The notes under the pieces are model-generated. The model ran no database searches. It had not been told where the DNA came from and was given only the letters and a program-made list of their open reading frames with translations. Shown one piece after another: positions 5,951 to 51,072 of a stretch of DNA of 64,000 bases. The first letter of the stretch is position 1; each line of letters begins with the position of its first letter. Source of the stretch: Haplodiscus bocki (taxonomy: Eukaryota); assembly GCA_965655095.1 (NCBI GenBank), contig OZ296655.1, positions 39,494,001 to 39,558,000 on the forward strand. The letters run 5' to 3'. A program made the position numbers and the translations under genes.

Positions 5951-5959
5951 GGAATTTTT

Positions 5960-18260: not shown

Positions 18261-18363
18261 AAACACTTCGGTGATAAAAACAACGGAATTCAATGTTTCA
18301 AATTGTAGGCCTGGAGAGGTGCTTTTGTCGCCGCTTTGACCTTCTGGCGTAGACGTGTTTAGT

Positions 18364-19420: not shown

Positions 19421-19861
19421 TATAAAAAACTCGAAAAAAAATCAGACTATTTCGAACTATTAGGGTCTGAGGTGTTCAGGTTGGGAGGGTCGGTTGCCTG
19501 GGTACACGATAGCAAGGGGTTCCGTAAAGTAGTGCGACAGAACTTCAACATGAGTTCTGCAGATTTGAGCTGGGACTGAGAAAAAAACTTCTTGTAAACT
19601 GAATGTGGTTTGGATGGTTCGTGTTAGGAAAAAAATGAACCAGTAGTTGCGTTTCCATGTGTTGGTGGTATTGATTTCCTTCAGGCCGATAATGAATACT
19701 CAATTAATGCTGTGAAATAGAAGATTCGGGCCAAGAAGTGATTGGGATTTGATGTGTGCCGACTTGGCAGAAATAGCAACGAATAAAGATTTCTTTAGGT
19801 AACCTGTTCTTGGTTGTTAACACAGAAAAACGAAAAGTTACATCGGAAACACAAATTCAAC

Positions 19862-20131
19862 TCAAAAAGTTTCTTTTGTTAACAAGTCGGCGTTTACTGC
19901 GGGAAAACACTTTTTTCTGGTTTCGTGAAAGTCGAAAGATAATCCAGATTCGGCAGCTATCAGTAGGAGTTGCGTGATGACAGTCAATGCACGAAAAAAG
20001 TTGAAAAAGTACTTTGTGTTATTGATAGGGAAGCGATTTTGCACGGTTCGGTACGCGGGTGGGGCTGAAAGAGGACTCATAGAAAAAACTCGGGCATGGG
20101 GTGATGTATGCGCACAGAATTGAACGGACAT
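19862..20131 (-). pseudogene. ORF0 upstream of gag (ATG-initiated MSVQFCAHTSPHARVFS...)
   Basis: Codon-level conservation with 6214-6402; lies between the 5' LTR and gag. Confidence 0.6.
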
Positions 20132-20220
20132 AAAAAAGAAAATGAGCTAAAAGCAAAAAAGAACGAAATATTTCAGAGAAACTGAAGTTTTTAGCAAGTA
20201 ATCACGTGAGGTCATTAAAA

Positions 20221-29589: not shown

Positions 29590-32479
29590 AATTGTTTACT
29601 ATTGTTCTCACTAGCTAAAATCGCTGAGCAGTGTGTGCGACCATACGTCTTTTTTATCGTTTAAGAAAGTCTCAGAAGCTCACATTAGTGTTAGCTTTGT
29701 ATATTTGCCTTGCTAAACCGCGCGAACAAAATTGCGTAATTTCAACTAGCAAGGATTTGGTAAGCACAGAAAAAGTACAGAATGAGAGATGAACTATTTG
29801 ATGAACATACGAAAAAGGCAGTCAATCTAATAAATGCAAAGGTTCAAAAGATAATATAAAAATGCGGATGGGTGATACTATTAGGGCAGAGATTTGAGAA
29901 ATCGAATCAAAAACACTTCAACAACTGTCCGCCAAAGTCTATCCAATCAAGTCTGTAAGATATAATATCACATCCGAATAAACTGCAAAATATTCAAAAA
30001 CTTCTGCATATTATCAACTGTAATATAAAACAACCAAGTTATCCTCCAATTCGCAGAAACAAATCTTTCCTTTGTATGTTTATCCCGAAATTGAAGATAT
30101 CAACAGATTTTTTGCCAGTATCACGAATTCGGAACAAGCTAATTTATCACAAAGTCCTGAATTTTCTGAAATTTGTTTGAGAAATCTGGAATTCAAGGCA
30201 TCGCAACAATTGATAATACAAACACAAGCCTTTATATTAAATCAAAAATGTACCTAACTTTTGAATTACTCGCATGGATTAGGAAACAAAAATCGATAAA
30301 AATGATTCACAAATCTTTCCAAATGATGGAAATAAATATCAGATTTAGAGAACATGTTGAGGTATTGTTTTTTGACTACTTCGCTTTTGGCTAGCACCAC
30401 CAATATTACATTAGTTGTTTCTAACTCGGTTTCTGCCTTTCTGTTTCAATTCAGTTTTACTCTTATGTTTTATGTAATCAGTTTAGCTATGATTTTGGTA
30501 ACATACCATAAAAGCAGCAAACCTAGTCATTTTTTTTTGAATCCCTGTAGTGCAGGCCGTGACATAAGTCAAACGGTGTTTTAGAACGGGATATCACTTT
30601 TCATCTACAACTTTGCTGGCATGCTAAAGCAGTCGACCAAGTCAACTTTCTAAAGGTCCCCATTTTTTCAAGCGTTAAGGTATTTTAGCTTCTTCCAAAT
30701 GATTCAGTACTTGCGTGACAAAGTAATTGGTCGAAGGATCTTAGTTCTTCTTTTGTCCCATACCGTGACGTAGTTTTTGGTTTCATTGGAGGGATTCAAA
30801 CGGTTTTAGTTTTTTAGTTTTCAACTAAGACTAAGTTTCATTCGTTTTGAACGGTCACTGAGCTACTCTTCCTACTTTCGTTTTTTCTCAAACGCGGTAT
30901 TTCAGTCGCGAACTTGTTTGAGAGGCCTCTTTTCATAGGTTTCAAAGGACCAGTAAAGTGATAACTCACTGGGTTTTAAATGCAAAAATCAGTGAAGAAT
31001 TTCTAGCGAATTTTGCTCCACTCTAAATGAAAAAAAACTCACTGGTACCATCATTCAAATTGAAGAATTCGGTTGAAGTTTGGGTGACGATTAGTCGTGA
31101 AGATAGGATTTTTGCTCGTTGAGAAGTAATGAGGAGAAGATTCAAATAAAAAAGGTAAAATATTGGCGAGGAGGTCAGAAAGAGATCTGCCCTGTAAAAA
31201 AAGCAGGTGAATTGTAGCAAGCGAACGATTATAATGGATGTGCACTGGATTTTCATAACCGTTTAGTCAAGTGTCCATGCAATTTGATGTGAGACCCATT
31301 AAAATCATTTGGCGAGGAAATTGGGAGAAGGAAGAGCTTGGTTCTGGAGATGAAGAGTTTGCAGTTAAGACAAGATTTGTAATTGTGTCAAAATAAACTC
31401 GTTGAAATGATGAAGAATCTGTCTTGGATTAATTTCATCGACGACGATTTTGCCCTACAAAAATGACGAGGGGAAATTGGAAAAGCTTTTCGCTTCCGGG
31501 AAGCATGCTAGTTAACTTGAGAAAGCGAACGAAGATTATGAACGTGTACAAGGTGTTCACACCCGTTTTATGGCGCCATCGAGTGGTCGTCCCACAGGAG
31601 AGCGCTGCAGAAAACAATATCTTCATTAGGATCAATTAGTTGTTGTGAAGAGTTGAAGAACTGCGGTTTATAGAGTTATGGGGGTTTTGTACCTAAGTCA
31701 TAATTTGCTTTGGAAGAAATTCGATGATGATGACTTTGCGGTGGTGTCTGATTTTGACTCAGAAAAAATTTGAGAACTGAGAGCAAAGAGAAAATGATGT
31801 TTGCGGGTTTAGAAAAGGAGAAGAGAGGAAAAGTAAGAAAGGAGAAGAAAGCAAGTTGTTGACGGTAAGCTAGTTAGTGAAATTATGAACTTTTCCGTCG
31901 TGCCAAATGACTGAAAATGGCATCATTCTGCTTTTTCATGTCACCATCAGCAAAACAGCACATGCCAGGCATGTCAGACCTACTGACGAATAGGCTGAAA
32001 GTCGACTGTGCGCAAAATTGATAATTTATTTTTCATTCATTTTTGTCATCAATTTGTCCAATAATCACTTCAATTTGAAACTGTAGCCATATTGACAAAA
32101 AACATTCATTCGTCAACATTCGGTATCAAGTTCGATCCTCTCCGCCACCATAGAGTCGGAATTTAATTTCTTCTTTTAACCAACTTGGTGGCTTTTCCTG
32201 GGAGCTTTCAATTACAATTCTCGTGCTTTATCTCGCTGATGGTTAACTTGGGTATGGTTAGTAAGTTTTGTCTCCTTCGTAAACTTGGTTAACTTGTAAA
32301 TCAAGTTTTAAAATCAAATAAATAAACCAACTGCACTGATCTTTCCCAGTTTTCATCTAAAATTTGATAAATCATTCGTTTTTTCTTTTAGCCAGAGATC
32401 TCTTTAAGTTAGTTGCAACTTTCTTTTGTAAAAACTAAAAAACTGCAATTTTCTTTAGGGATGAGCGTTTGGCGTGACG
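29590..32479 (-). repeat. Element B 3' LTR
   Basis: Colinear with 48207-51072 (ATTGTTTACTATTGTTCTC.CTAGCTA at both 29591 and 48207; TCGATGATGATGACTTTGCGG at both ~31721 and ~50307); roughly 75% identity by eye. Confidence 0.9.
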
Positions 32480-32499
32480 CTATAACTCACCTCGATAGA

Positions 32500-33769
32500 A
32501 GAAAATGAAAACTGATTGGAGGGCTTTCAGGAAAAGGAGGAAATGGAGGTTTTTTGCCAGACGATTTCTGCACAATAGGGTCAGAAAAGGTTACTTCGAC
32601 TTAACAAACATCATTCACAATGTAGTCATCAGTTTCGCTGAAATATTTATAGAGTGGTATGTTTTCGTAAATGGCGACAGCAAAAAGCGCATCGTTTTTG
32701 AGGGAAAATGTTGGTCCTCTGAAGGGGGGCTCTCGTGTAGACTGAATCGTTTGCGTCCACGTTTTGTGTGCGTCTATCTGGTCCCTGATAATGAGATGGA
32801 CAACCTTGGGAAATGGCCCTCTTAAGGGGCCGTCATATTTTCCAGGGAAAATAGCTAAGGTGAGGGTTGCAAATTGGCCGGCTGTTGTATCAATTCCATA
32901 AGGGTGAAATGGGATGATCAAATTATACCCAGAGGGATGGGTGTGAAAAACTGGACTCCAGTAACCAAAAAAATTATCATCAATAGATTTAGGTTGGAGG
33001 TGAGTTGGTTTCGCTGAATCGAAGACAAATCTCACTGAGGTTTGTCTCCGCCATAAGATAGTATTCGGGAAACCAGCTTCCCGTTGACGAACCTTGTCAT
33101 ACGAAAAGGAGTAATTACTCTGTATGCCTGAGAGTAGGGACTGCCGACGCAAAACATCAACTCTTAATTGCTTCTGGAGGGCAATGAATTTGGAGAGTAG
33201 GTCTGGAAGTGCTGTTGACGGAAAGATTTGAGGATTTTAAGAAGATTGGCATGGACTAGAAAAGGAAAGCAAGGCAGACAATGTAGACAATTCGGAATTG
33301 CCTATTAGTATAGGTCAAGAAACGGATGCTCGGGGAAGCTCATGGATTTCAAGTACTGAAGGGCTCGCCACTGTGCCTTCACTTGGTGGGTCATTGGGTA
33401 GAGGTTTTGGATGGGTTCCAGCGTTCTGATTCGCAAGCAGGTTTTGTGTAAATCTGATATCTTTCGGAATTTGGAGAATTACAAGCTGTAAAGTCTGCCG
33501 TTCCAGCCATTTGGATTTAAGATCCAGATGAAAGTATGCAACTTTGAGCTGTACCGAAGGAAGATACTGTACCTGTTTGATGTGAGCTAATGGGAACTTC
33601 TGTATCAAAGCGGTAGAAGCTGCATTGACGATTCGGAGTATGTCCAAAGTTGGTTCAACTGGGTGTTCAAGGATTGAATTTGTTCTTCAAGTTGCGGAGA
33701 ACAGGAGCTAAGAGAAGCAGATGCCAAAGTATTCTTTGCTGGGGTTTCGAGTTTTTCTGAAGAATCCAT
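32500..33769 (-). pseudogene. TRAF-like accessory ORF: coiled coil + TRAF-C/MATH domain, no RING or zinc fingers
   Basis: ILWR..YWSPVFHTHPSGYNLII.FHPYG....GQFATLTLAIFPGKYDGPLRGPFPKVVHLIIRDQ..PFRGP..YIVND matches the TRAF-C consensus FIWK..SPAFYTxxxGYKMCLRxYxNGxG.GTHLSLF.VMxGxxDxLLxWPFxxKVTLxLLDQ..FQRP..YVxDD. Candidate ATG at 33769. Confidence 0.85.
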
Positions 33770-34495
33770 TTCCACAGGAGACTGAGGCCGACTAAAATCC
33801 TAAGGCTTGAAGCGTTGCTGCGGACAGAAAGTAAACCAAATGAGTCTTGTCATCGGGTCTGGTGAGCTGTAATAGCTCTTAGGGGCACAACACTTCGTTG
33901 AGAGAGTAAAGAACTGTTTCGTATAGTAAATTCTTGTCGCGTACTATCCCAATATGCAATTTCCCGTGAGAAAAAGTATGGTTTGAGTTTATAAGGCAAA
34001 TGACGATTGAATCGAGCCTTCTTAGTTTCTTGGCCCGACAGGGAAAATGCTCGCGTCGGTGTTGTTTGTGGAGTGCCACTGATTCGGCGTGATGTTGAAA
34101 TTTAGTGTGTCTGGGACAAGAGACAAGAGGTGGAACGTCTCGTCTCCAGGTAATAAATTGTTGGAGTGGCTCGTTTTCAGATTCGGACTATACTTGTGAA
34201 AAAGGGTTGAGATTTTGATGAGTACATTGATGCTGGGAGAAGCTGGCGGTGAATTGGTTAATGATCTCGCTTCAGGGTTAGGTTGTTCGTTGTTTGGTTC
34301 AGGGTCTAAAGGTTTTTGAGAAATGGAATGGGGGACAAAATGAAAAATAGGTGTCGTATTCCGTCCAAAGACGTTGGGGTGAAATGCTCTATTTTTAGAT
34401 CGGGATCTCTGGGCATAGAAATAATTTCGCTGCTGTCCAAAGAGGAATAGACTTAAAAGATTCTAGCTAAAAAGATTCACAACAATAGAAGAACA

Positions 34496-36652
34496 TTAAA
34501 GAGGTGATACAGGAAGGGTAGAAAAAACCAACGCAGCAGGATTACCAACCGGGTAGAGGTACTCTTCTTTTTTCTTATCTTCATCTCGAATTTCAGTAAA
34601 TTCAATACTTACTCTGAGTTGCATGTTTTGAGATTCGGCGGAAGCCAAACCAGTTGCTTGAGGATTATACTTTGAAATCGTAATAAACGTCGTGAAAGTA
34701 TTGTATGAGGTGGTCATTAGGGTCCTACCCAACCCAAGTGAATCACCAGCCATCCTGTTTCTTTCAACTTGCCTTAGTTTCATGACTATGAAGTCTATTC
34801 AGAGCTCTAGTAACGGGAAGACCGTGAATCCAATTCCACAGTGTTCAAGGATGTAAGTAACTGCCCAAAGGTATCCGTAAAGCGTATTTTGAAAAATCAC
34901 GGGGTCATCAATTCCTTAACGTAGAACTTGGTTCTTGGGGTGTAATAGTGGAGCCCGTCAGACCCCTCCTGATGAGTAGACAACACAACGAGGTTCTATG
35001 AGAACTTCTTTAAAGCAGTTCTGGAATCCGTTATAATAAGGATGTTGTCCCAGAAACCGCGAAGTTACCTTCTTGTAAATATGGAACCTCTTGAGCATTG
35101 AGGGACTGTGCAGTCATAGGTGTGAGATTTTAGGCCCAAAAACAGCGGATTTATCCTGATGTACTATACCAGTAGTGGGAGTGTACCAAGAGTCTTCCTG
35201 GTTTGGGTCAAGTTGAAAAAGATTCTTGATTCTATCGGAACAGTTCTGCGTAACAGCTTCAAAATAAGTTTGTCGTGTGATAGGATCAACATATTGAATT
35301 TCACTTTCGTAAAGTATGGGCATTCTGTCATAACACTGACTCAACGTAACAAACGGTGAGTGAAAAACCGGGCAATGATTCAGCCAGGCTAGTCTGCCGT
35401 CTGTTTCAGGAACATTGGTCGTTTCCTGTGAGAAGACAGCTCGCTATTTGAGTACTTTCAAAGGCCAGCATTAAGTTACTGAGGATTTGTGAACGTTCTT
35501 GTTCCCATTGCTTTTGTAGCAACTGTATTTCAGTTGCCTGAACAAGAAGTGAACTTTAGAAGAAATAGTTTATCTTCAATTCAAGGTGCTTTTCGTAATC
35601 TACGTTCAAATAGTTGTCTCGGTCTTCTGTTTGCTGGAACTGCGTTCCCTCAAGCTTGGGGTTATCTGCATACAGTTGGCCCAAGTCAGTTTTTCCCTGT
35701 CGCCCCAGGTTTTGAGGAACAATAAATTTAGTCGCACCATTCTTCTCTCCACCGAGATTTTTCCACAGCTCAATATGGAAACCCTCACTTTGTCGCATTA
35801 TGGAGGGAGAGAGAGATTCATAGCTTGTTGGGTAAGAAAGTGTGCGTTTCTCACAAAGTTTTTGAGGGTTGTTCATAATACGGAACACAAATTTCGATGT
35901 AGAGTCGGTTCCTCTAAAAAGCTCGTACTTTTTGTTTTGTTTAACCAAGTTGACGTCTTCTGTTCGAAAAATTGAGAATAAATATTTGTCCGGGTAATCC
36001 CAGATGTGAGCATAAGGTTCAAGTAAAGTTGTTCCGCAACCAAGCTCTTCTAAAGCAAAGTAGTAATAATCCAATACCGGATAGCACTTTTTCCGTTTCC
36101 GATCGTGACTTTTGGAGTTTTTTTTCATAAGTGGATAAAGAAGGTATCTTGAGAAATGACGCTTTTTGTTTAAAAGTGGCTTCTGTTGGAGCCGGTTGTG
36201 TCACCGGAAAGTTTAACGACAGGGGTCTTCTTGGTATACCATTCAAAACCAATCCAGAGGCCTTGTGAGTTGATGCTGGCTACTTTTGCAAGAGTTCGGC
36301 AGTGTTCTGGCAAAATAATCAAATCACTGGTTATTCCGGCAAAAGTGTGGTCAATGCTGCTTTGATCAAGGTGTCCACAAGGCCTTTTTTTGTTGGCGCT
36401 GGATGTCGCGTCTAGCTTTTCTCTGACATATTTGGTGTAAAGCGTAAGTTAGGCTTTCCTAACTTCTACTGTTTCTGGTGTAACATAACACGATCCTACT
36501 TGGTTTACAGCATGAAGACAATTTTCTGTTTTTGAGCTGCAATCAAAAAGAGATACTTTAAGAAGTGGAGCAACCTGATCTGAATTTGTATTTATATTGT
36601 GAGTTACCTTGGTACAAAACACGAGTAAATGAAGGAGGAGTAGCTTCATCAC
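34496..36652 (-). pseudogene. env: env-like class III glycoprotein (chuvirus/herpes gB-like), frameshifted
   Basis: Signal peptide MMKLLLLHLLVFC; SLFDC..VNQVGSC; GCGTTLLEPYAHIWDYPD; CYDRMPILYESEIQYVDPITRQTY..QNC; C-terminal hydrophobic helices near 34900-34680. The pattern resembles chuvirus-like glycoproteins (YDC..SLxxVxxC; CYxELPV..FxxPxTR..C). Confidence 0.7.
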
Positions 36653-36925
36653 TAACTACTCAGTGGAGATTTCTATCAATTTTTTACAGAAATAGCTATC
36701 AAAAACGCCCTAAATTAAAACCGGCGTTCTCCTGCACTCGTACATTGTGAAGGCAGAAAATTTGAACTAGAAACTAGGTTACTGCGAGAACGACGTTGAA
36801 ACTTTTATAAAGGGCGTTGGACTAAAATCAGTTCCGGTGAAAGGGGATGGCGGTCAAAAACCAAAACGTCAAAATGAAAAGGTGCCGAGTAAAAAAAGCT
36901 GACCTCTACCAGTTGGATTAGACGG

Positions 36926-37402
36926 TTAGAGTAAATGCAAAATGGGCATTCTTTTTAGCCCCTTCTTGAGTAGGTGTTGCTGCTCAGGCTGAAACTTCTT
37001 CAGACTACGTGACCGTCTGATAAATTTCTTGTTCGTCCCAGTCCAAAATTGAATTTTAAATGTCATAAAGATAAACGACAGCGTGTAGGATGTTGAGTTC
37101 TGACACCCGTGAATTGCACCAAAGTTAGTGTCCATAAAAATTAGAAGATCGTCCAAGCTTTGATTTTCCCCTTTGTCCAGTATTTTGGAGATCTCCAGCG
37201 TCACAATGGAGTTTGCGAACTATTCTGTTTTGATTGTTGGGTGGATCAGTATTACATCGAATAGATTCTCAGCAACCCCTATTCTGACGTGAAAGGTGCT
37301 TGCGTCAGGAATACAAAACTGGTAGATTTTGAAAGTTTTCCTTGTAGTAAAATTGTGCCCACTTGCAGTTGCGATCAGCTCACAAAAATTCTTTGTTGTC
37401 AC
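36926..37402 (-). pseudogene. Orphan ORF between the integrase-side orphan and env
   Basis: Two adjacent minus-strand ORF fragments (37220-37402, 36926-37204) in the element's sense direction; no recognisable domain. Confidence 0.35.
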
Positions 37403-38053
37403 CAGGGCGTCGTAAAATGGCTTTAACGAGGGTCACTCGAGGTTTTCCGTTCCGCCTAATTATATGGTCCGGTGGAGGGTTATGAGTATTGATTTGATTA
37501 AAGGATGGTGACTAAATTTTGGGGGCACACAAAGGTTTTATTTTTGTCATTTCTGACGAATTGAGTTTTCTTTATAAAACTCTCGTTCTTGTGTCCAGTG
37601 TTAATGCCACGATGACTTGGAGTTTTTTGTCGATTCGAAGCCAGATGAGTGTCATCTAAACGATGAGCTCCCGTTTCCAAAAATAATGTTGCTAGTTATG
37701 TAGTTATCTGCAGAAAGTAGACTGCGTAGGTGATAGTAATTAAGAGACTCGGGATAGCACTTGTAATTTTATTCCACTCCCGTTTCTGTTTTCGTGTGAA
37801 TAAGAATTGTTTTTCAATCGGATTTTGTTTCATTTGTTTTCACTCTCGGCAAATCTCCGTCAATTTCCACGTATTTTGAATCATAGCAGGGCTGAGAATC
37901 AAATCATCGGGCTATTTCATTTCTAGGACGATAGGGTAAGTTGTATGTAATATGTAAAATAAATAGTCTTAATTAGAACTAGGTTCTAGGATTAAATATG
38001 CTAGAGAATACATAGGAAACAAAAATGTTGCTGCAATGTCTTCTCCTGGAGAT

Positions 38054-39431
38054 TCATCTTTCTGTTCCATTACTTCCGTTGTAGCAGGGTCTTCCGGAAG
38101 GAAAGGGTAAAAATAGGAAGCCTATCGGTAGGGTTGGCCTTGAGTAGGAAAGTTGCAGGGTGAGTGGGCTGGATTCGGCCTGTACATGCGAATCCAATCG
38201 CGGGTTTGTAGCTATCAAATAGGAAGATTGTTGCAAGCAAGTTGCCAAGGGGTTGGTATAGAAACAATGGGGTTGTCAACTCTAAAACTAATTGTTGTGT
38301 ATTATAGGATGCAACAACCCGGCCCGTCCTTCCGTAATTCAGTGCTCCAAAATTTTCAAAAGAAACCGGAGCATCCGAGTGGTTCGGACATTTCTTTTGT
38401 AAAAATTTCAAAAAAAATGATCCTCGAGTTGGGGAGGAAATCCCGTTGGGAATTGGGTTAAAGTTGTCTTCGAAAGTCGAATATGAGGAGTCCTTCTCAG
38501 AAGAGGTTAATAATAATGGTGGCCTGGGTTACGGCTGCGATAATAATTTTGTTGGAGATGGAGATTATGTCTTGTACTCTCGTGTACAATCTTCAAGGGT
38601 TGAGGACGTTTCTAAGGGAGAAGACGAATTGTGCGGGGTTCCTAGATCCACCAATTCTAGAAAGAGCTAATTTGGTCTAGAGAGCCTTTTATGGCCGAAA
38701 TTTGCAAAAAATGGTACTCAGCGCCCCAAAAAAGATGGCAGTTGAATTTCTGGGTGCTGCAATTACCGGCTTTAGTATTAACAACGCACAGGAAGGACGG
38801 GATTTCCTTCGGTTGTTTGGGTGCTGGGCTGCGGCTGAATTTTGCTCTGGTGTTCATGACTTGGATGCCCGGGGCGATTTCTTGGACATCGAGTAGAGCT
38901 TCGGGGAATCTCTTGTTGGTGTGGGGTTCTCTCACGCCAATTTCAAAAACTTCAGTCTTTGTGCCACTGTCTGGTAGGTGGATATTGGAACTGCACAAAC
39001 ATCTTTTTTGAGAAGTTCAGAGAAATAGCTTGAATCATCGAAACAGAAAGCAGATGTATTGGAATCAGAAAATAGGGGTCATCATCTGAGCTTTCATAGA
39101 CAATATAGTCGAAAATATGTGAAAGGAAGCAGGTAGGGAGACAGGAGAGAAGTTCATCCAGCAAAGAACCAAGGGAATTGAGAGGGTGGTCACAAAGAAG
39201 TTCGTAAGGACCGACTAAGGCCTTGGCGCCGAAACAAATCTGAATATTGGATTTGCGGTTGACGTCAGGTTTGAAAATTGTAAATGAGATCGAAGTAGCA
39301 CAAACTTGAACCCTGTCAGTGGCATAGTTCCAAATTGTTTTAGTGAGCAGTGCACATTAAAAGTTCAAACCATGCCCATCAGGAGGGACAGTCCAAATAC
39401 AGTTGGGAAAAATCTTTCTGCATGGAGGCAT
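38054..39431 (-). pseudogene. Long orphan ORF downstream of integrase (~450 codons, disrupted)
   Basis: MPPCRKIFPNCIWTVPPDGHGLNF*CALLTKTIWNYATDRV..LDELLSCLPTCFLSHIFDY.. continues through successive frameshifted fragments to ~38054. Confidence 0.45.
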
Positions 39432-39913
39432 TAAAACTTTAAAAAAAACAGAAAGGTAGCAAGAAGACTGGTGAACATTTTGAATATTGATTAGCGAGAT
39501 TAGTGAGAAAAACGCAGAAAGAATTGCTGAAACAAAACACTGATTGATCGTAATCAAAAATAAGTTAAAGAAGTGCTAAGTTTTAGTATTTTTGGCCTTG
39601 GCGTGTACATGTGCGTAGTACCGGTTCTGGGTCGGGGTGATCGGGATCAGAACGGTTATGTTTGGACTCTTTATTCCAAAAGTTACGAAGTTTTCGGATG
39701 AATTATTGGATGGGGCTCAGTGGATGATCAGGCGAGAAAGGTGCAGACATCTGTCGTGATGTGGAAGGAACAGCAGGCAATGGCCGAAAAGTAGTATAGG
39801 CAGTAGTCGATCGTTGAAGGCGAGAGAAGGTCTGACGAGCATTGACTCCTGAACCACTATTAGTTTTTATGGTTCTTTGTGTTGGAAGAACAGTTGAAGT
39901 TGAAGGTACGGCG

Positions 39914-41284
39914 CTATAGGGAAAAGCACCGATTCAGTTGCGGTTGGTTCGTCTCTGGTGTATATTTTTTTGATACGTTGTTCCATGAGTCGTTCATAAA
40001 AACCATTGTCACGTATTTTTGACAGGATGGCTTCTTCAATCGTCGCCGGCAGGAATAATTAAGTTGGTATCTAGTGTTCGTAAAACATTTAGTAATCAGG
40101 AATGGTCCCAGACAGCGTTGTCGGAGTTTTTGACTTTTGGATAGATCTTGCCGATGATTCTCGTATGAAACTTTTTGTCCAACGTTGAGATGATGGCCCA
40201 ATGTGCAGCGGTTAGGATAAGCGTGCAATCTAGCTGTCTGCTCCCAACTTTTCTTGAATGTAGCAGAATAGAGTAGCTTGCTATTTCGTTCTGTTTCTAG
40301 AAGGGTCTGAGATAACTGTGGACGGAGAAGGTTGTCTAAGAAACGATTCTTCATAATGTTATCGATGTGAGAGTGTGCAGGTGGGTCTTTGCAAAACTCC
40401 CAACAGCAAAATTTCTGCTTATTCCGGTAAAGGTCACGCTTTAGAAACATGGGTTTGTGTGGTTTCGCTCCAAAAACTACCTCATAAGTTCTTTTCCCAG
40501 TTGTGTTTTTCACACTAGTAATATGTTCAAAAACAAATACGGGTGCTGAGGAAGGCCAGTTAGTTCCAGCATTACTCAGAATTTTCGCCAGTATCTAGTG
40601 ATAAGTTCTGTGTCTCTACCTTGCCATTTGTCCGTGAGTGATGGACTGTTTGTGGTCTTAACGTAATTCCAAACTCTTCTGTCCAGTAAATGAAATCGGT
40701 ACTGATGAAAGCGGTGCCCCAATCGTGCATAGTAGACTGGTTTTCCCGAACGACTTTGTTCAATTTTCGATTGCAACAGTCCTGACTTGGGCACTAATAT
40801 TGGTAGCCGGGTGAACCATAAGAATTCCTGGGAAGACATGAATTACTATCAAGCAGTGAAGATAACCTTTAGTTGGGGGGTGGAGAGGCCCATCATGGTC
40901 AATATGCAACTTGCAAAACGTTATTGTGTCGTTCTGCCATTCTTCCAGTGGGAATTCCTATTTGTGTTTTGCTTTAGTTTTGTTATTTTAGCAAGTAATG
41001 GAATCAGCTGTGAGAGCGCAAAACCAGTCAGACCTTCCAGGCCAATCAAAAATTAATTAGCAGGTCCTTGTTTCTTCCACGTAGCCGCCCATTTGGTTGT
41101 AATGCCCAAAGCTGAAAAAAGTTAGATGTAGAGATAGGGGGAGAAATTGTCTAAAACTTTGGTCGTCCCGTTTATCGGGATGCGCAGTGTCGCAGAGTAT
41201 CTGTCCTTCAGTTTCAATCAGGGGTCTCTTCAGTTCTGTAGTATAAAATCCCTTTAGATTGTTCGGTTTTTGTTGATTTTGCAC
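39914..41284 (-). pseudogene. Element B integrase with GPY/F-like C-terminal motif
   Basis: GHYNQMGGYV (HHCC region), MHDWGTAFISTDF..WTEEFGITLRP..TNGKVETQN, TGKRTYEVVFG, LGPFLITK..TRYQL. Confidence 0.85.
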
Positions 41285-42049
41285 TTGGCGAAGTTTTTCA
41301 TCAAGGAACGTTCAGTGCCAATTACAGGGTCATTGGTCTCCTCAGCAGGGATTGTGGAGATATTCAGGTCTACCAATTTAGCAACTTCATCTAATTTGGC
41401 AATGAGTGCTTCCGTAATCAGGTGAGCAGCCTCGGTGTATGCGAGTGGCTTTTCAAAGGAGGAGGCGTAATGTTGCCTAGCAAGGAGTCGTGAGCTGTTT
41501 TTGCTAAATACAAGCAATAGTGATCAATGTTAGTGTCTATTCTGCATTTGTGGGCATGTTCCTGTTCCTCCTCATCATCTTCCGTCGGATCAGTTTGTAC
41601 AGAAACTGCGTTTAAGGCCACGCAGTCTGCTTTTTCGTTTTCCAAAGAATTGATGGAATTGTAAGTTGCGTCATAACTGTTCTTTAGAATCAGGTAATGG
41701 GATAAAGGAAAGCACAGGAGGAGGAATTGGTTGTTGGTTTTGCTCATGTGAAACCAATTTACAGCACCTTTGGCCAAAAAGTTGGGAATTCATTGCTGAT
41801 ACTGTTTAATGTATAGCTTTTGCTATCGTTTTGGAGTCCCAGAATTTCTTCTTCTCAGCCTTGACAGCGATGTAAAGGATAAAAATCATTGAAGGACTCG
41901 GTCGGGTTGTGCTCGTGTTGATTTTTGTATGTTACTGAATTTCCACGTGCTTCAAAAAAGTCAATATCCCTAGGTATCTTCTTGTGTTGCAAGTGGTGTT
42001 TTTGATTTTACTCTAGTGTTAAATTTCTACTCAAAATGTCAAGAAAGGC

Positions 42050-43450
42050 AAGATTAGAGCCAGAGGTGCAAAAGCAATTCAGTTTTTGGAGCTTGGTGTT
42101 GATAACCCGAATTCTAGAAAGCCGATGGGATAGTTTTCCGTTGCGCCCTTATAAGTAAAAATTGGTTCTGTGATGACAATTTAGACAAGTGGGGAATGGA
42201 AGTCCAAAGATATGAACTTCATTCGTATGCAGCGCAAAGACAATTCCGCACAATTCGCGGTAGATTCTAGACATTTTGCTTACTTTCATCGGAAACTCAA
42301 GAATTGGAGGATTTGATACTTTTTGCTTCTGGAAAACGTTGTAATAAGATACAACCTGTACCAACACTAGAAGATTCGACGAGAATATGGAACCAGTAAT
42401 CAGCGGACGGGACAGCAGGGAAGGTGTTTTCACTGATTCTGTCTTTGATCAACTTGAAACGATCCTCGTGCTCATTGTTCTATTAGGAGGACGTCGATCT
42501 TTTTTTCAAGTCTTGGATTTGTTGACTGTCTACATGACTTTTCTTGATAAAGCAGCTGTAGAAGCCAAGGCATCACAGGAGTTCCATGACATCTGGTTTA
42601 CACTCTTGTAATTTCCGATTCTTGAGTTCTTTAACTCGTTTTGCGATAGGTTGAACTCCGTCGGGAGGAATACCTAGTCCAATAAAGTTATTTTTTAGAA
42701 GAAATAATGTTTTATCGGGCCAGCTTTTAGCCCAGTTTTACGTAAAAATGTATAATACTCATTTATAATGCCGAACATCTGTTTTTAATTTTGCGCTTGC
42801 AACATTCTATCATCAATGTGTGTAGAAACCTGCTTCTTTTCGATAACGGGGTCGAATTGGATTGTCATCAGGTGGTTTAAAAAAGTTAGGGAGTTCACAT
42901 AGCCCATAGAATCCTCGAGTATATTATATTGCCGTCCACCAGAATTAAAACCAAAAAATTTTGAGTTTTAGAACTCAGAAGTACATGATGATAAGCACAA
43001 GAGAAATCACTGACAGAGAAGACTCTACCATTAACACGGGTCAAAATCATTTGAATTGGTTCAAGCGGCCCGGAGTAATTAATGGGGGCCGTTACCGAGT
43101 TGAGGTACCAGGCCTCAAAAAAGAGTTTCCCAAAGTCATTTTAGGCCTCAAAATATTGGGGTTAACAAAAAGTGATCCCATTCCGTCATTGTCGTCCATC
43201 TGTCGAATGTTATCAGCTTCTTTAAATTGTTTGAAAAAAAATTTCTATCAAATGCCAGCGTAATTTACTAGGTAATTGCCTCTTCAATTCAACGTTAGGT
43301 TTATAGGTAACATGGAAATTTTGCTTGGCGTTACCCACCTCAACTTTATATTGGGAAAAAACATCTTGGGAATCAAGCAGTACCTAAATAAGGAGCGTCA
43401 TCTCTTCATCTGTGATGTGTGAAAACTGAAAATCAAATTCTCTGATGAAG
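42050..43450 (-). pseudogene. pol: Element B RT + RNase H
   Basis: FNSGGRQY.., THIDD (YIDD) at ~42825-42811, and RNase H YRELCGIVFALHTNEVHIFGLPFPTCLNCHH. Confidence 0.85.
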
Positions 43451-43689
43451 TTTACTAACTCTTTCGATTGATAAAGTAAATAATGTTTTATATGCCGATT
43501 GTTGAGGTCCCTCTCAGGGAAGATACGTAGATGTTGGTCACTTGTTGGTTGTCAGAACTCCTAATTTTTCCTAAAATCCGTCTCGACGTCCTTGTCACCA
43601 AAAGAAATTTCTGCACTATATCGTTCGATTGCAACCGCAGCATAAAACTTGACGTCGCCATCTGAAGTCATCGCGTGAACTCTATGGCT

Positions 43690-44110
43690 CTCAAGATTGT
43701 ACACGACAACTTGAATTTCTGACTGACCAAAGACGTCGAGTAATAACTTCACAACTTCCTGCCAATTCACATGATCTAACTCACAAGCGATTGTAGGTAT
43801 GGCAATCGTTGACACACCATACATAGTTGCAAGAGACTTCTTAGCCTCGAGCGATATAGAAGCGTTGGCAGATCAGGTTTGTCAGAGATTTTTTTTTTGT
43901 TACAAGATTGCAGATATAATGTCTGCTAGTGCAGTCCCAGAAAAGAATCACTTGCCCTTTCGGAAGCTCTGCTTTTTTACAAGTTAGGCGAAGACCAAGA
44001 AGACAGTGAGATAGGATGTGAGCAAAACACTTACTCAATCGCGCAGAGGCCGAGGTACAATGTCCAATAGCGTTCGGCTGCTGGATAAAGCAGTTTTCAT
44101 TTCCGTGAAC
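43690..44110 (-). pseudogene. OARD1/TARG1-type macrodomain in element B pol, between protease and RT
   Basis: QPNAIGHCTSASARLSKCFA..YICNLVTKKK..YGVSTIAIPTIACELDHVNWQEVVKLLLDVFGQSEIQVVVY, vs TARG1 [41 protein letters not shown]. Confidence 0.88.
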
Positions 44111-44936
44111 GATTTGTAGGAATTCATCGCTGGATTGGGTAGCAATTGCTCAATGTTGAAGGAAACACTCAATATATCGTCCATCAAGGATTTACTACAA
44201 TTTATGCCTCCGAATTTCTCTTAAATTTTCTAAATTTTTCAGCCACTTTCTTCATTGTGTGAGTAGTAGTGAAATGCACTTCAAGAAACTTTTCATTCAT
44301 TTTCTCAATTGCTTCAATTGTAGAAAGAACATCTTCGAGTAAAATTTCAAGTGTATATCTGACCACTTTTTTTTCCGGTCGAAAATAATTGGGGACCATT
44401 TCGATACTTCTGTCCACTTAGTTTTTTCCTGTAACCGAATTTTTTAATGAGATTTTAACAATCCTAGTTTTACAGAGCGTTTAGGTCATCTTTTTTGACA
44501 GAACGAATAGCTTTTCTATCTTTTTTTGACTGTTGGGCCAATATGTTTTTAACTAAGCCAATAGACGGAAAAAAATTCATAATTAATTTCTACCTCATTG
44601 TTTGTTTCACTAGCCTTAGTAAGTATGTTTTTAGTTTCCTTCAATTGAATTTATGTATTTTTTTCGTACTTTTTTTGGATCTATGTACATAAAGCTAATA
44701 ATAGTCTTCTTTCCAGGTTTTCCTACAAACACTTTTATATCAACATAAAGTATAGTAAATTGCTGATGGCATTTGTTAACTCATAAGGACTCCTATTCTG
44801 ATATTTAGGTTCTTCGCGGTCGGAAGCATAAAAAAAACTCCAATTCTTTCTTTGGGAAGTGTACTCAGGTGGTTTTTGTTGTTTTCTATTAGTGTTTGGA
44901 GGCTTTCTTCCTATTGCGTGCGTAAGGTATTTTTAA

Positions 44937-45540
44937 TTAACGGGCCAGTTGAAACAACTTGGCGGTTGGGTTGAAATGTATAACCACGTGGGAAGTGAGT
45001 TTGAGAATCTTCGGGAGAATATTTCCAACATCGAGCACTTTTGACGTCAAAATACATAGTGTAGGGAATCCAAATGTTTCAGAATTGAGATAAATGGGGA
45101 GAACATTTGTTTTGGTGGAAACTTTTATAACAAAATGACCTAAGGGTTTCCGTGTTCTATTCCTGGCGAACCAGAGTGGATCCCAGTCACTGTTTATGAC
45201 AAAAATCCGGGGTAAATTTCCGGGGTAAATCCAAAAAAGGTAAATTTTGATTTTCAATTCAATAATCCAGACCGTTGGAGGGAACACAGAAGATCCATTT
45301 GGGTCATAACTGAGAGTTACGCTTCCAGAGCCGGCCACTGGAACGGCTTGTCACGACTAGGTTTTAGTTTTTTCAGTACTTTTCTGAGTTGTTATTGGGT
45401 GGTGTAGCTGGAAGACTTCTGAGAAAGTACGAAATTTATTAAGTGAGCAGGAAACTCCAGTGTCCAACATAATCTCAACTTCCAGTCAACTATCTTTTCG
45501 AACGTCTCAGGTGGCAAAATAAAAGATGTTAAAACTGAGT
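44937..45540 (-). pseudogene. Element B aspartic protease
   Basis: VEIMLDTGVSCSLNKFRTF at ~45480-45425. Confidence 0.8.
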
Positions 45541-45943
45541 CTGGAGTTGCTGGGTTGATCGGAATTACAGTTCGGACACCCTAGTAGTTTGAAGGACAAA
45601 GGTCCCAAAACGCGTTGATGCAATCGTCCTTTGTGATAAGGCGAAATATGTTAGCTAGTGGCTGATCTTTGGATTTTGGGAATTGTTGTTCAGAAAGGGT
45701 GAAAATGATCGTAGGTTGATTATCCGGTCGTGGAGAAACCGGGTTTTTACATTGGTTGGGCTCTGGTTTGACGAAATGAATTGTTTCGCGGAAAATCTTG
45801 TCTCTGGTCAGATGGAGATCGAAGGGAATTTGCACTACTTCGCCAGTTTCCTTTAGAATTGTTAAAGCTCCCATGTCTGGGCCAATCCTCATTGATCCTG
45901 TTAGTAAATAGGTCCTTTCGTTATTCCGAAAGTCGTCTCGGGC

Positions 45944-47152
45944 TCAGGTCATTAGGTTTGTAGGAAAGATATGCTCTAGATGAGTCTCGACGATTTTTAC
46001 ATTGTCAAGAACCATGGTTTGCTCCTCGTTTTTTGTTATAGGTTTTGGTAAGGGTGACTTTTTTTCGGAAGTTCTTCCAGTTTCTAAATTTTTCATTTCA
46101 TTATCTCGTATTTTCTTTCTACACCAGCTCGGGGTTTGGGGTGTGTCCACTCGTGGGGCAATAATTGAAAATCGAGTACCGTTCCATCTTCCTCTTTGGT
46201 TTGGATCAACTGGGAAATATTTTCCACAGCGTTGACTCGACAATCTTGTAAATCTATTCGAAGATCTTTCCTTTTTTTGCACAATTTGCCAAATTCAGCT
46301 TTAGTCTAATCTTCAACAATCAGAAAGTTTAAATATACTTGAAAAGATACATCCTTCTGAAATATACTGGTTGGAAAGTCATTCCAGGTGGCATTTGGGT
46401 GCTCCATTAGGTATTGCTGGGCCTTAGGTTGTAGAAATCTATGTCTCAATCCTCTAAAACTGTAATCCATGTACCTGTGTCTCCTTTGTCTTCCTTGTGT
46501 AGCTCGTTCTGCGTTTTGTTGAGCATACTCATTTCCATTCTTTTAATCAGGCCAGCCTTTGTCCAGTGTCTTTTTGATTCTGTAGAGAAAGTTCCGTACT
46601 TCTTCTCCATCTCCTCAAATACAATGTTCTATTTCTAGTCGGTGGCGGAATTGACTTCGTCGATCTGAGAACCTAGTAAAAAAGTTCGTTTGGCTATCGT
46701 CCCCTGGGATGGAAGCTTCGAGGTTGTTTCCATTTCAATTCAGCGGCGGCGGAGCATCTGAGTAAAGAGGAGATGAGGGCTTTTTTCAAAAATTTTATTT
46801 GGCTATGGCGTCGGAATTTGCTGGAGAATCTCCGAAGGCGAAGTTATGTTTTCGTTCTAAAAATTGTTTTGAATGATTCAGCATGTTGATCGGGACCAGT
46901 GCCAGAGAACTTGTCTAAGTCGCGGCCAGGGTAGGCTAGGTGAGTTACAGCCACAATGTTAGAGTCAAATTTGAAGCTTAGACATTCTGTTACCTCTTCC
47001 CGGATTGCAAGTTGATGAGCGTTTGAATGAGGCTGAAGAAAAGCTTTGTTTAAGTTAGGTGCGTCACATACAGATCTCAGCAAAAGGTGATTAGCATCTA
47101 TGTCTAGGTTTTTACCAATTTGTGAATCCAGATGTACTGTAAACCGAATCAT
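45944..47152 (-). pseudogene. gag: Element B gag
   Basis: LDKFSGTGPDQHAESF capsid-like start; degenerate knuckle ..TPSWCRKKIRD; position upstream of PR. Confidence 0.65.
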
Positions 47153-48159
47153 GAAATCTTAGTTGAAAGTCCACTTCAAACAAGTAATTATCACCGTTAG
47201 AGTTTCATCTTTAGGAGATATGATCCAAGGGCATTTTAACGGAACAAGTTTGCACACCTTTTCTGGTAGCTTTTCCCAGTCCCGTGGAGGGTTGTCTGGT
47301 TTTTGTTTTTGCGGCTTGTATTTGTGGTTAGCAGATTCTTATATAGTTTGTACCAGTTTGATAGTAGTAAGCGAACGGCTTGGTCACAAGATTAGCACTA
47401 ATGTGGCAAGGAGAAAAAAATTGAAGCTGAAAACCACGTCTTGCCTCATTAAGATCAAGCTATGAAAATGGGATGGTTAGCAGCGTTATTGTCAGATTGA
47501 GGACAGAGTGAAAATTAACAATCAGATTCTGAAGAAATTACAATTAAACATGAAGCTTCCTCATTAGGGGGTACCTGTTCCAGTTCTTGACAACGTCAGG
47601 GAAATTAATCCAGAAAAATATCATCTAGGCGTCGAATACCCTGCGTCTCTAATCGTTGTGGAGAAGACCGGGGCAGATATGGCAAAGGAACAAGCCCAAT
47701 TAATGAAAAAAGATGATTAAATAAATCACAAAGACGAGGAATATTAATTAAATCGGCATTCAGGCCCCCAAACTGCTTTTGAAAACGATTTTGTGTAGTT
47801 CAAAAACTGCCAGGAGTTAAAGAGGTATTAAGAAAAGAGTTATGACTGTTACTGTTACAGTGAACAAATAAAGCGCTACATATGTTTCGTCTTTGATTCC
47901 AATGAGTGTTTCAACAACCCAAAAAAACCGGGTGGAACTGCATCGTCGTTTGGAGTTGAACGTCAGTATCAAGCAAAGAAGGAATCCAATAGATACACAA
48001 TCTTTCGAATAAATGCAGGTTGACTGGAAAGAAGAACAAAAGGAACGGAAGAATGTGGATAACTTCAGCAAGAAAGTCAGATAAAGATTTCATACAACTA
48101 AAGCATCGAAGAAAACTGCACCGATTTATCCATATTAGTGGGAAAATTGCTCAAAAAAT

Positions 48160-48174
48160 GCCTCGCTGGTCGCA
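48160..48174 (-). other. Degenerate primer-binding site (tRNA-Arg-like TG(G)CGACCA...)
   Basis: Minus-strand TGCGACCAGCGAGG lies just inside the 5' LTR; one G is missing relative to TGGCGACC. Confidence 0.5.
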
Positions 48175-51072
48175 GTAGTTTCTAGCGGAAACTGAGGGTT
48201 CTTTTGATTGTTTACTATTGTTCTCGCTAGCTATTACCACTGAGCACTATATGTGCGGCTATACGTGTGCTATTTTGTGTAACAAAGTCTCAGAAGCATA
48301 CACTATTGTTATTTTTGTTTATTTACCTTGCTAAACTGCGCGAGGAAAATTGCGTAAGTTCCACTAGCAAGGATTTGGTGAGAACGGAAAAATACAGAAA
48401 GAGAGATAAACTATTTGATGAATATATGAAAAAAGCAGTCAACCTAGTAAATGCAAAGGTGCAAAACGTAAATTAAATTTGTGGATGGGTGAAATTGATA
48501 GGGAGAGATTTGAGAAATCGAATCTATTGACCTTCAACAGCTGTCCTCCAAAGTCTATCGTTCAAAATTGTAAAACAAAAGATCAAATGCGAATCTACTG
48601 CCAAATTTTCAAAAGCTTCTGTCTATTGTCAACTGTATTGTAGAACAACCAAGTTATCCTCCAAATTGAAGAAACAAAATAAAACCCACTGTATGTTTGT
48701 CCCGAAATAGAAGTTTTCAACAAAATATTCGCCTGTATCACGAAATCAGAAGTATTTAATTTATCGCAATGTCCAGAGTTATCAAAATTTTTTTGAGAAA
48801 GCTGAAATTTAAGGCAGCGCAGCATTTGATAAAACAAACATGAGGATTTAGATTAAATACCAAACTTAGCAAAAACTCGAATTACTTGCATAGGTTGAGT
48901 AACAGTAATCGTTACTATTGATTTACAATTCTTTCCAAAAAATGGCAATTTTTCAACAGATTCAAAGACTGGGTTGAGGTAATGTTTTATGTCTTTTTCC
49001 TTTTTGGCTAGGAGTAAAAGTTACATTCGTTGTGTCTAGCTCGGCTGTTGCCTTTTTGTTTCTTCTAGTTTTATTTTGAAGTTATATTCAATCAGTTCAG
49101 CTAAGATTGTCAATTTCCGTAAACCCCTACAGTTCAGGCCGTGACATAAGTCAAACGATGTTATGGCACGTGATATCACTTTTTATCCACGAGTTTGGTA
49201 ACATGTATAGAACAGTCGACCAAGTCAAGTCTCTTAGTGTCCTGTATCTGTCAAGCGTTAGTCCATTGACGAGGCGACTCGATGTACTTTAGTTTTCTTT
49301 TATGACTCAATACTTGAATAACAAAGTAACCGGGTGAAAGATCTTAGTTCCCCTTTTGTCCGTTACCATGACATAGTCTTCGGCTTTCTTGGAGAGTTTT
49401 AAATTGTTTTAGTTTTTAGTTTTTTTCCAAGAATCAATTTCATTCGTATTAAACGGTTATTGAGGTATTTTTCCTACTTTTTTTCTCAAACGCGGTACTT
49501 CTCCTGCAAATTTGTTTGGATGGGTTTATTTTTAAAAAATTCGGATAACCAGTAGAATGATAACTCACTGAGTTTCAAATGCAATAATCTGTTAGGAATT
49601 TTCAGCGAAGTTTACTCTACTAGTAATTAAAAGGAAAGACTCACTGATACCTTCATTGAAATTGAAGAATTGGGTTGAAGCTTGGGTGTTGATCGTTTTT
49701 ACTCGTTGAGAAGTAATGAGATGAAGGTTTAGGTAAAAGAGTTAAAGAAATGAGGAGGAAGTCGAAAAACGTTTCGCCTTTCGGAAATGAGCAGGTGAAT
49801 TGTAGCGAGCGAGTAAACATTATGGACGTGCATTAGGTTTTTTTACCCGTTTGATCAGGTATCGCTGCATTTTGGAATGAGAGCCAATAGGATCGCTTGG
49901 CGAGGAAATTGGGAAGAAGAAAATTGGTTCTGGAGATGAAATGTTTGCAGCTGAGATTTTTTCCTGATTGTCTCAAAATGTTTTTGTGGAAATAAGGAGG
50001 TTATCTGTCTTGGAAAATTTTCATCGACGAGTTTTTTGCTCTAGAAACATGATGAGGGGAAGTTGAAGAGATTTTCGCCTCGGGGAAGTATGGTAGTTAA
50101 CTGTAGAAAACGAATGAATATTGCGAAAGAGTACGGGGTATTTTCATTCGTTTTTTAGCACCATTGAGTAATCATTCAATAAGAGAGCGCCGCAGATAGC
50201 AATGTTTACAATAAGATCAATTAGTAGTTATAAAAAAGTGAAGACTGGCAAATTTTTTGAATTATTGAGGTTTTGCAGCTAGGTCATACTCATAATTGGA
50301 AGAAGTTCGATGATGATGACTTTGCGGCTAAGTCAACGTTTGACTCAAAAAAAGACTAAGAAGTGAGAGCAAAGAAAGGAGGACATTTTTAGGTTTTTAA
50401 AAGGAGAAGAAAGGAGAGGTAAGAGGGGAGAAGAGAAAAAGTTGTTTACGGTAAGCGAGTGAGTGAAATTATAATCGTTTCCGTTGTGCCAACTGACTGA
50501 CAAATCGCATCATGCTGATTTTTCATGCCACCATCATCATAACAGCGCATTTCGAGCATGTTAGACCGACTGACGGATAGGCTGATAGTAGGTTGTAGGC
50601 AAAATCGATATTTTAATTTTTATTTAGTTTTGTCATCAATTTTTGCAATTCCAATCGAGTAATCCCCTCAATTTCAACAGTCGCCATAATGAGGACAAAT
50701 AAATGTTCGTCAACATTTGGTATCAATTTTTTTCTTCTCCGCGGCCAAACAGTCCGATTTTTTCTTCTTCTCCATTTAACCAAGTGGACTTTTGCTGGGG
50801 GCCTTCATTTACAAATCGCTTGGTTTATCTCAATGATGGTGAAGTTTGGTTTGGTTATCATATTTTACTTCCTTCGTAATCTAGGTTAGCTCGTAAATCA
50901 AGTTTTAAAATCAAACAGACCAACTGCACTGATCTTTCTTTGTTCTTTTCTAAATTTTGTTAAATCTTGGGTTCATTTTGGGCTGAATTTTTTTGATGTT
51001 CGTTTCAATTTTCCGCTTTTACAAAACTATAAAACTGCGGCTTTGCGTAAGGTTTGAGCGATAGTCGTAACG
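48175..51072 (-). repeat. Element B 5' LTR
   Basis: Direct repeat of 29590-32479; similarity ends at CGTAACG (51072) and CGTGACG (32479). Confidence 0.9.

Follow-up and report, generated by a model that had tools for sequence, protein, structure and literature searches.

A 21,513-bp insertion in the window, the whole 64,000-nucleotide stretch of Haplodiscus bocki DNA analysed here, is a single decayed copy of an active and recently multiplied family of Ty3/gypsy elements in an acoel genome. Younger relatives of this copy carry gag, pol, a class III env and about twelve accessory genes under selection, and the family probably represents a complex, envelope-using endogenous virus that expresses some of its genes from trans-spliced, multi-gene mRNAs. 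A preliminary description, drawn from the letters of the window, had proposed a metavirus of an invertebrate with long terminal repeats (LTRs) and the order gag, protease (PR), macrodomain, reverse transcriptase (RT), RNase H (RH), integrase (IN), two orphan open reading frames (ORFs), env and TRAF. This order holds on the minus strand, as judged by tblastn with unbroken relatives and by Pfam, and the host is an acoel (the nearest named matches of its mitochondrial COX1 are Symsagittifera, 75%, and Baltalimania, 72%). The gene set is as complex as had been claimed and in fact larger, with about twelve accessory genes besides gag, pol and env; in place of two orphan ORFs there are six leader ORFs, an antisense gene (ASP), three pre-env ORFs and an ORF termed X. 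A 152-amino-acid minus-strand frame at 38070-38528 sits opposite the real, plus-strand ASP.

The long direct repeats that bound the insertion are real LTRs, flanked on both sides by a matching 4-bp duplication (Table 1). Positions 29588-32479 and 48204-51072 are 73.6% identical over 2,948 columns (BLAST), and the LTR pair is 75.7% identical over ungapped columns, with a Kimura two-parameter (K2P) distance of 0.30; the insertion is therefore old. The copy is dead: every gene contains stops, all genes except X contain frame changes, and no long ORF is left intact. The gag, pol, env, X and TRAF genes of unbroken relatives nevertheless map in order onto the minus strand (tblastn), and DNA of other copies matches 20,231 of the 21,513 bases (94% colinear). 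Of the bases left over, the longest stretch is an insert of 577 bp within pol (44187-44763), which contains a 71-amino-acid frame. The matching duplication and the colinearity with other copies identify one element rather than nested insertions with termini of their own, and the same architecture recurs in independent loci on nine contigs.

The family was characterized in the 1.5-Gb assembly within which the window lies. A TRAF search returned 3,587-4,696 first-look candidates and an RT search 13,032, neither figure being a copy number; all 150 scored TRAF candidates had E < 1e-69 with the window TRAF fragment as query. Twenty-three loci were fetched, 17 picked by TRAF match and 6 by RT match alone, and these supplied the younger intact copies that had been suggested as a check (LTRs mostly 99-100% identical). 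All 23, including each of the 6 picked by RT, are LTR elements with ASP, a, c or a c paralogue, env, X and TRAF. RT and the macrodomain are present in 21, the two others being internally deleted and lacking pol, and ORF b is present in 19. LTR ends were called by script in 21 of the 23 loci, two remaining uncalled; in 20 of these 21 copies the LTRs are 98.8-100% identical (the remaining one was mis-called), and 15 have an exact 4-bp target duplication. The LTR identity in most copies indicates that the family multiplied very recently. The elements measure 20-23 kb in total, with LTRs of 2.4-3.8 kb, and fall into at least three lineages (A, B and C), between which RT is 92-98% identical and TRAF only 33-40%. 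A metagenome scan detected only two distant gypsy loci (28%). One non-autonomous copy (G000:C6:14386228-14400721; L026-L028) has LTRs 99% identical and lacks pol, and it keeps ASP, a-c, env, X and TRAF; its 327-amino-acid open frame joins a strongly altered piece of gag to the end part of pol.

The ratio of nonsynonymous to synonymous change (dN/dS) was calculated pairwise between natural copies with unbroken frames, in lineage A unless stated. Values were 0.05 for gag, 0.04 for RT and 0.07 each for the macrodomain, env and protease, with core genes spanning 0.03-0.07; ORFs a, b and c gave 0.08, 0.08 and 0.23, and the newly recognised accessory ORFs 0.06-0.42.

Table 1. Features of the insertion and its flanks, in window coordinates.
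Feature	Positions	Strand	Remarks
Whole insertion	51077..29565	-	21,513 bp; ends set by comparison with young copies
4-bp target-site duplication, upstream side	51078..51081	-	Same bases as at 29561-29564
5' LTR, 2.9 kb	48181..51077	-	Self-BLAST 73.6%; K2P 0.30 between LTRs; ends from young copies
Primer-binding site, decayed	48161..48177	-	In young copies complementary to 3' end of tRNA-Met(CAU)
Five small hydrophobic leader ORFs L1-L5, broken	47321..48093	-	43-61 amino acids in young copies; tblastn
Leader ORF L6 (116 amino acids), CxW family, broken	46964..47311	-	tblastn; dN/dS 0.16
gag, broken	45587..46957	-	tblastn; PF03732 in young copy
pol (PR, macrodomain, RT, RH, IN with C-terminal module), broken	39589..45614	-	Pfam, tblastn, structure-sequence matches
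Later insertion into pol, foreign to family	44187..44763	.	577 bp; no match among fetched loci; weak 26-bp inverted ends
TARG1/OARD1-type macrodomain between protease and RT	43698..44101 (approximate bounds)	-	phmmer; motifs
Post-pol ORF P, candidate	39012..39431	-	140 amino acids in lineage C; decayed in lineage A
Antisense gene ASP, broken	38309..38896	+	184-213 amino acids; splice acceptor at 38306-38307
Pre-env cassette, broken	37060..37892	-	Acceptor (37892), then ORFs a (73 amino acids), b (73 amino acids), c (127 amino acids)
env, class III fusion glycoprotein, broken	34499..36649	-	Pfam, Atlas, hydropathy
ORF X, broken	33860..34466	-	204-227 amino acids, no AUG; begins at splice acceptor
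TRAF-like gene, broken	32540..33853	-	Low-complexity N-terminus, coiled coil, TRAF-C/MATH; no RING or zinc finger
3' LTR, 2.9 kb	29565..32484	-	Preceded by short purine-rich run at 32485-32493
4-bp target-site duplication, downstream side	29561..29564	-	Identical to upstream side

The proposed placement among metaviruses (Ty3/gypsy) is borne out by the RT-RH similarity ranking together with the LTRs, the primer-binding site and the target duplication. Among solved structures, RT-RH is closest to Ty3 (E 5.6e-37, versus 1.6e-22 for foamy virus, 3.7e-21 for 8r0s and 5e-15 for MLV-type enzymes); this comparison with retroviruses and caulimoviruses is a similarity ranking and not a tree with those outgroups. 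A quick RT tree, built without retroviral outgroups or ICTV Errantivirus references, put the elements into a separate long-branch clade of 21 rows. Pfam on a young copy and colinear window matches confirm the domain order gag, then PR-RT-RH-IN. In young copies pol overlaps the end of gag in the -1 frame, with a slippery-type heptamer at the overlap. A PDB sequence search with gag gave no informative match.

The primer-binding site is matched by tRNA 3' halves with a CAT anticodon and CCA, of which three were read. These three halves are fixed in DNA with their CCA (L125-L127), and two of them are joined to an LTR end; tRNA 3' halves so joined are accidents of reverse transcription. ARAGORN called no tRNA gene at these matches because they are 3' halves. 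In front of the 3' LTR only a short, imperfect purine run is found, the Metaviridae criterion being about ten A/G. The same run (window 32484-32493; all lineages) reads as a perfect splice donor. The LTR begins with TA in lineages A and C and with TG in lineage B.

The envelope is of class III, as had been proposed. PF24664 matches env of a young copy with E 6.9e-37 and the window fragment with E 1.3e-5; Atlas scores env at 0.96, its model-feature neighbours being chuvirus-type proteins, herpes gB and rhabdovirus G. The gene, placed downstream of integrase as in errantiviruses in the broad sense, encodes, by hydropathy, a signal-like N-terminal and an anchor C-terminal hydrophobic segment. No match to Env was found by PDB sequence search, and no relative among viral contigs. 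Env is only about 56% identical between two lineages, yet in both it is constrained like protease (dN/dS 0.07), and the gene is retained in both pol-less copies.

Two further domains of the preliminary description, an ADP-ribose eraser-type macrodomain and a TRAF domain, also withstood closer analysis. The macrodomain matches human OARD1 structures (phmmer E 2.5e-25) and is TARG1-like. Both active-site residues, a lysine and an aspartate that we take to be catalytic, are aligned, and each motif is present in 20 of 21 copies; with these two residues kept and a dN/dS of 0.07, the predicted protein is compatible with an active enzyme. The domain is restricted to the inner part of the RT clade, and a macrodomain also occurs in the unrelated gypsy protein P0153. 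The TRAF protein matches PF21355 (E 4e-19) and 28 TRAF chains in the PDB, with additional coiled-coil-type matches. No Pfam match to a RING or to zinc fingers of the TRAF2-6 type was obtained, and the whole protein has only 2-6 cysteines; dN/dS is 0.09-0.13 (MATH 0.10, coiled coil 0.13). Such a RING-less, zinc-finger-less TRAF is predicted to be compatible with a decoy, and macrodomain and TRAF may both act as antagonists of host defence. The sole zf-TRAF match in the genome search is a host gene at G000:C8:58443000-58453000 (L029-L032), an intron-containing TRAF gene with a zinc finger. This sole intron-containing host TRAF found is not close to the element TRAF.

In lineage A, six ATG-initiated ORFs, five encoding hydrophobic proteins (L1-L5) and one a soluble protein (L6), follow one another along the 1.2-kb leader, and the leader of lineage B contains one hydrophobic ORF and three paralogues of L6 (B2-B4). 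Each of L1-L5 has one hydrophobic peak, the segment beginning at residues 1-24, and their dN/dS values are 0.42, 0.08, 0.23, 0.30 and 0.09, respectively. None of the five starts with MG, as the FAST/sORF2 myristoylation motif would have it. L6, B2-B4, c and d form one element-specific family of small proteins, here called CxW (profile E 8e-6 to 1e-4); a first comparison of c with L6 was not significant, and significance was reached only with separate profiles. The L6 model (predicted local distance difference test, pLDDT, 86) contains four strands and two helices. A fold search with it gave no significant match, the best being leads only (Z 4.5, PH-like; Foldseek E 0.14 to PUR repeats), and Atlas gave no lead. 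ORF P is likely a CxW paralogue, of uncertain status: it aligns to the family with hhalign E 8e-4, but with hidden Markov model E 0.09-0.6. A second post-pol frame in lineage A (114-120 amino acids, dN/dS 0.47) was left out of the gene count.

ASP and X were examined in 12 of the 17 TRAF-picked copies, those with an unbroken frame, two types being tested. In all 12, the five other frames opposite or alongside ASP are closed and a splice acceptor stands directly before its start. The ASP protein has an acidic N-terminus and a helical C-terminal domain, with a dN/dS of 0.11-0.14 and about 31% identity between lineages; in one sub-lineage the gene sits inside both LTRs. Its model core has a pLDDT of about 90, and a fold search reached a best Z of 4.4 with no viral fold match. 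The idea that ASP is a death domain was unsupported by model comparison. Silent divergence (dS) of ASP is 1.1-2.1, versus 0.1-0.6 in neighbouring genes, and there are several allelic types (across L012-L079), which suggests module exchange or conflict.

In the pre-env cassette of lineage A, ORFs a, b and c are joined stop to start. ORFs a and b are paralogous (E 1.2e-5), with no detectable relation to the CxW family to which c belongs; a complex prediction for a with b gave no support. X encodes an acidic N-terminus and a basic, conserved C-terminus (dN/dS 0.19-0.20). In 12 of 12 copies it begins at a splice acceptor without a methionine start, and the TRAF start overlaps its stop or follows it directly. 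ASP, c and X had no Pfam or PDB sequence match, and X and ASP showed no sequence or fold link to complex retroviruses or caulimoviruses.

Chained ORFs of this kind are depleted of internal start codons. Out-of-frame ATGs number 5 against 59 expected in L1-L6, 1 against 43 in c and 15 against 53 in X, whereas the observed-to-expected ratio is 0.8-1.7 in gag, RT, IN, macrodomain, env and MATH, and an LTR control gave 17 against 17. One leader contains exactly six ATGs in 1,130 nt, each of them an ORF start. AUG avoidance combined with abutting stops and starts is the signature expected of leaky scanning or reinitiation, processes known from caulimoviruses and several RNA viruses.

A fossil junction connects the family to host trans-splicing. 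In a pol-less copy, a 38-nt piece (G000:C10:40253173-40253210) separates the primer site from the a acceptor, which it meets exactly. It is identical at 37 of 38 positions to the spliced-leader exon of a tandem array, where the exon is followed by GTAAGT and linked to a 5S rRNA gene, and its last 31 nt equal, bar one base, the Symsagittifera spliced leader as printed in PMC9911081. The piece has 1,036 genome matches within one mismatch, 695 of them followed by GT, many of these within the tandem array, and it heads varied, unrelated sequences in 20 loci read. Rfam gave no match for the leader RNA. The junction is most simply explained if reverse transcription switched templates between genomic RNA and a trans-spliced subgenomic RNA. 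A single junction tells that trans-splicing occurs at the a acceptor, and gives no frequency for it. Neither a retrocopied junction at the X acceptor nor a leader joined to the ASP start was seen in pattern searches, which were too narrow to show absence. Of 15 joints read, among more than 1,000 in four runs made up of contigs of unrecorded kind, none had GT..AG ends, which has no bearing on expression. The leader array itself lies at G000:C9:72473746 onward (L123 729-1098). Several hundred dispersed leader copies head retroposed sequences (L089-L107), some of which recur and one of which has a PHD-like frame; these copies are a fossil record of trans-spliced RNAs.

We propose the following scheme. 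The LTR transcript would double as the genome and as the mRNA for the leader ORFs, for Gag and for a frameshifted Gag-Pol; ribosomes would get past the leader ORFs through leaky scanning or through stop-start reinitiation. Addition of the host spliced leader at internal acceptors would yield a capped subgenomic mRNA for a-b-c, and probably likewise for env, for X-TRAF and, on the opposite strand, for ASP. tRNA-Met would prime reverse transcription, and integration would leave the 4-bp duplications. Env would carry particles from cell to cell, with the germ line or stem cells as the probable destination, and the element may be infectious. The macrodomain, packaged with Pol, may strip host-added ADP-ribose from replication intermediates or proteins, and the RING-less TRAF may dampen signalling by host TRAFs, for which entry into host trimers is a likelier route than the binding of receptor tails. 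X and ASP, by analogy with complex retroviruses, might regulate transcription or RNA export; the roles of the other small proteins are likewise putative.

Several observations weigh against this scheme. The leader fossil comes from one copy and one acceptor, the a acceptor, where it is the sole match. X lacks an AUG and the leader ends in an in-frame stop, and X therefore needs a non-AUG start or a cis-spliced first exon; such an exon was not found, and the phase-0 X acceptor in all three lineages favours cis-splicing. Distant members of the RT clade have no macrodomain and some closer ones have lost its second key motif, which makes the domain dispensable at clade level. The TRAF receptor-groove residues mostly differ from those that we take to be present in TRAF2, and no furin-type site was found in lineage A Env. 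The dN/dS values and AUG counts come from related copies, which are not independent, and from unbroken frames only (12 of 17 copies, for instance, in the case of ASP and X); L1 (dN/dS 0.42) and the second post-pol frame (0.47) are weak.

The same element and genes could be expressed mainly through internal promoters or ordinary cis-splicing, the leader copy recording a rare event. Besides the solitary fossil junction and the phase-0 acceptor of X, which suggests a coding exon joined by cis-splicing, there are strong donors behind the pre-env cassette in lineages B and C, and Oikopleura Tor expresses env from an internal promoter or by cis-splicing in the account given in PMC4402516. About 30% of genes are trans-spliced in a related acoel according to PMC9911081, and any acceptor left unpaired may therefore receive the leader now and then. 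Against this stand the exactness of the junction, the presence of the whole leader and the lack, upstream of the a acceptor, of a donor that all three lineages conserve; internal promoters and trans-splicing can, moreover, coexist. We consider this account unlikely, though well worth keeping in view.

More doubtful still is a purely intracellular retrotransposon, in which Env, TRAF and macrodomain would serve replication within the lineage or host tolerance rather than cell-to-cell spread or defence antagonism. The element is indeed known from its genes, it has no relative in viral contigs, its lineage A Env has no furin-type site, and TARG1-type enzymes, which work in DNA repair (PMC4695847), could simply aid integration. 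This account has to contend with an Env that possesses signal and anchor segments, shows the constraint of protease (0.07) in each of two lineages that share only about 56% identity in Env, and persists in the two copies without pol. The idea that nested insertions piled up by chance between unrelated LTRs can practically be dismissed, since one true 577-bp nested insert in pol and LTRs just 74-76% identical are outweighed by the matching duplication, the 94% colinear bases and the recurrence of the architecture on nine contigs.

The window contains other repeats. A second, unrelated and decayed LTR element occupies 9556-21339 on the minus strand, with LTRs of about 830 bp that are 85% identical; it has gag, RT and integrase, with a macrodomain sitting after RT/RH and before integrase, and in a frame further downstream a basic site precedes a hydrophobic stretch, the arrangement of F-type envelopes. 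Another, related LTR piece, the third, occupies 6175-6998. A LINE on the plus strand (58931-63488) encodes a PHD/C1-type ORF1, endonuclease, RT and RNase H, ends in an AAC repeat and has longer frames than the window LTR elements. A higher-order satellite is found at 1-7800, with units of roughly 380 bp and near-identical blocks of 1,971-2,301 bp.

Complex retroviruses (HTLV-1 with Tax, Rex and HBZ, HIV, foamy viruses) and caulimoviruses provide precedents for a post-env regulator exon, an antisense gene and polycistronic scanning or reinitiation. The acoel element is likened to them in its working only, its RT-RH being closest to Ty3. Nor is size alone unique, plant Ogre and planarian Burro elements being as long or longer. 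The Metaviridae profile (PMC7879559) is matched in the LTRs, the primer-binding site, gag, PR-RT-RH-IN, env after integrase and an internal length of about 15.7 kb within '3 to >15 kb'. That profile, however, has one to three genes and non-coding LTRs, whereas the acoel element has 15+ ORFs, one of them inside the LTR in a sub-lineage, and a purine tract that is short and imperfect.

A gB-type env on a gypsy element is not new, because Ty3/gypsy elements that carry an env of the HSV/gB type ('ancient errantiviruses') are described as widespread across animals in PMC13524379. These share the gag-pol-env order, class III env, tRNA primer site and multiple young copies with the acoel element, which differs by about 12 further ORFs, LTRs of 2.4-3.8 kb and a total of 20-23 kb; the words TRAF, macro, acoel and Xenacoelomorpha do not occur in the main text of that report, nor six acoel names in its 7 supplementary files. 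Cer1 of C. elegans (PMC3315495) is a Ty3/gypsy element whose spliced mRNA takes the spliced leader while a long RNA skips the splice sites, but it has one spliced message near the 5' end, and the acoel element has an internal acceptor before a multi-gene cassette, env and many accessory genes. Oikopleura Tor (PMC4402516) is likewise an env-bearing, gypsy-like element of a trans-splicing marine host with a separate env message; its env is expressed by cis-splicing or an internal promoter, and 'trans-splic' and 'spliced leader' are absent from the text of that report. MDG1-group elements of Drosophila (PMC11952523) resemble the L1-L5 arrangement in bearing small membrane-protein ORFs (sORF2/FAST-like) before gag, but they have no env, and sORF2 is 63-107 amino acids long with a myristoylation motif and an ectodomain of about 30 residues, whereas L1-L5 have 43-61 amino acids, no MG start and an env in the same element. 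Plant Retand elements (PMC11963269) have extra ORFs between pol and the 3' LTR, including antisense ones like ASP, and bdelloid LTR elements (PMC5408684) have captured enzymes, as here; both carry one or two extra ORFs of other families, and the abstracts of the two reports do not mention TRAF, a macrodomain or chained small ORFs.

Thus, the family is an unusually gene-rich variant of the Ty3/gypsy elements that bear an env, and among the most gene-rich animal mobile elements found described. In the literature searched, most subscription papers lying outside its scope, neither an LTR element carrying TRAF or a macrodomain nor this family was found. The gene combination is undescribed there; repeat libraries (Repbase, Dfam, GyDB) and the supplement of the acoel genome paper were outside that scope and may hold the family unannotated. 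At somewhat under an even chance, we would go further and see in it an undescribed lineage outside Retroviridae, with 15+ genes, in which post-env and antisense regulators arose independently, a TRAF and an ADP-ribose hydrolase were acquired to counter host immunity, operons are resolved by the host's spliced-leader machinery and by stop-start translation, and spread in the acoel genome is under way.

Accessory-gene complexity is usually ascribed to vertebrate retroviruses, and these data suggest that gypsy elements may reach or exceed such complexity independently. With its many natural copies, the family lends itself to testing how animal ribosomes get through chains of five or six ORFs on a single mRNA, and whether mobile elements can build operons by means of trans-splicing. 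In practice, acoel annotations could overcount TRAF genes, given the thousands of TRAF matches that lie in elements. Finally, the capture of TRAF, together with TARG1-type macrodomains in two unrelated elements of the window, points to TRAF signalling and ADP-ribosylation as defences against retroelements in an early-branching bilaterian.

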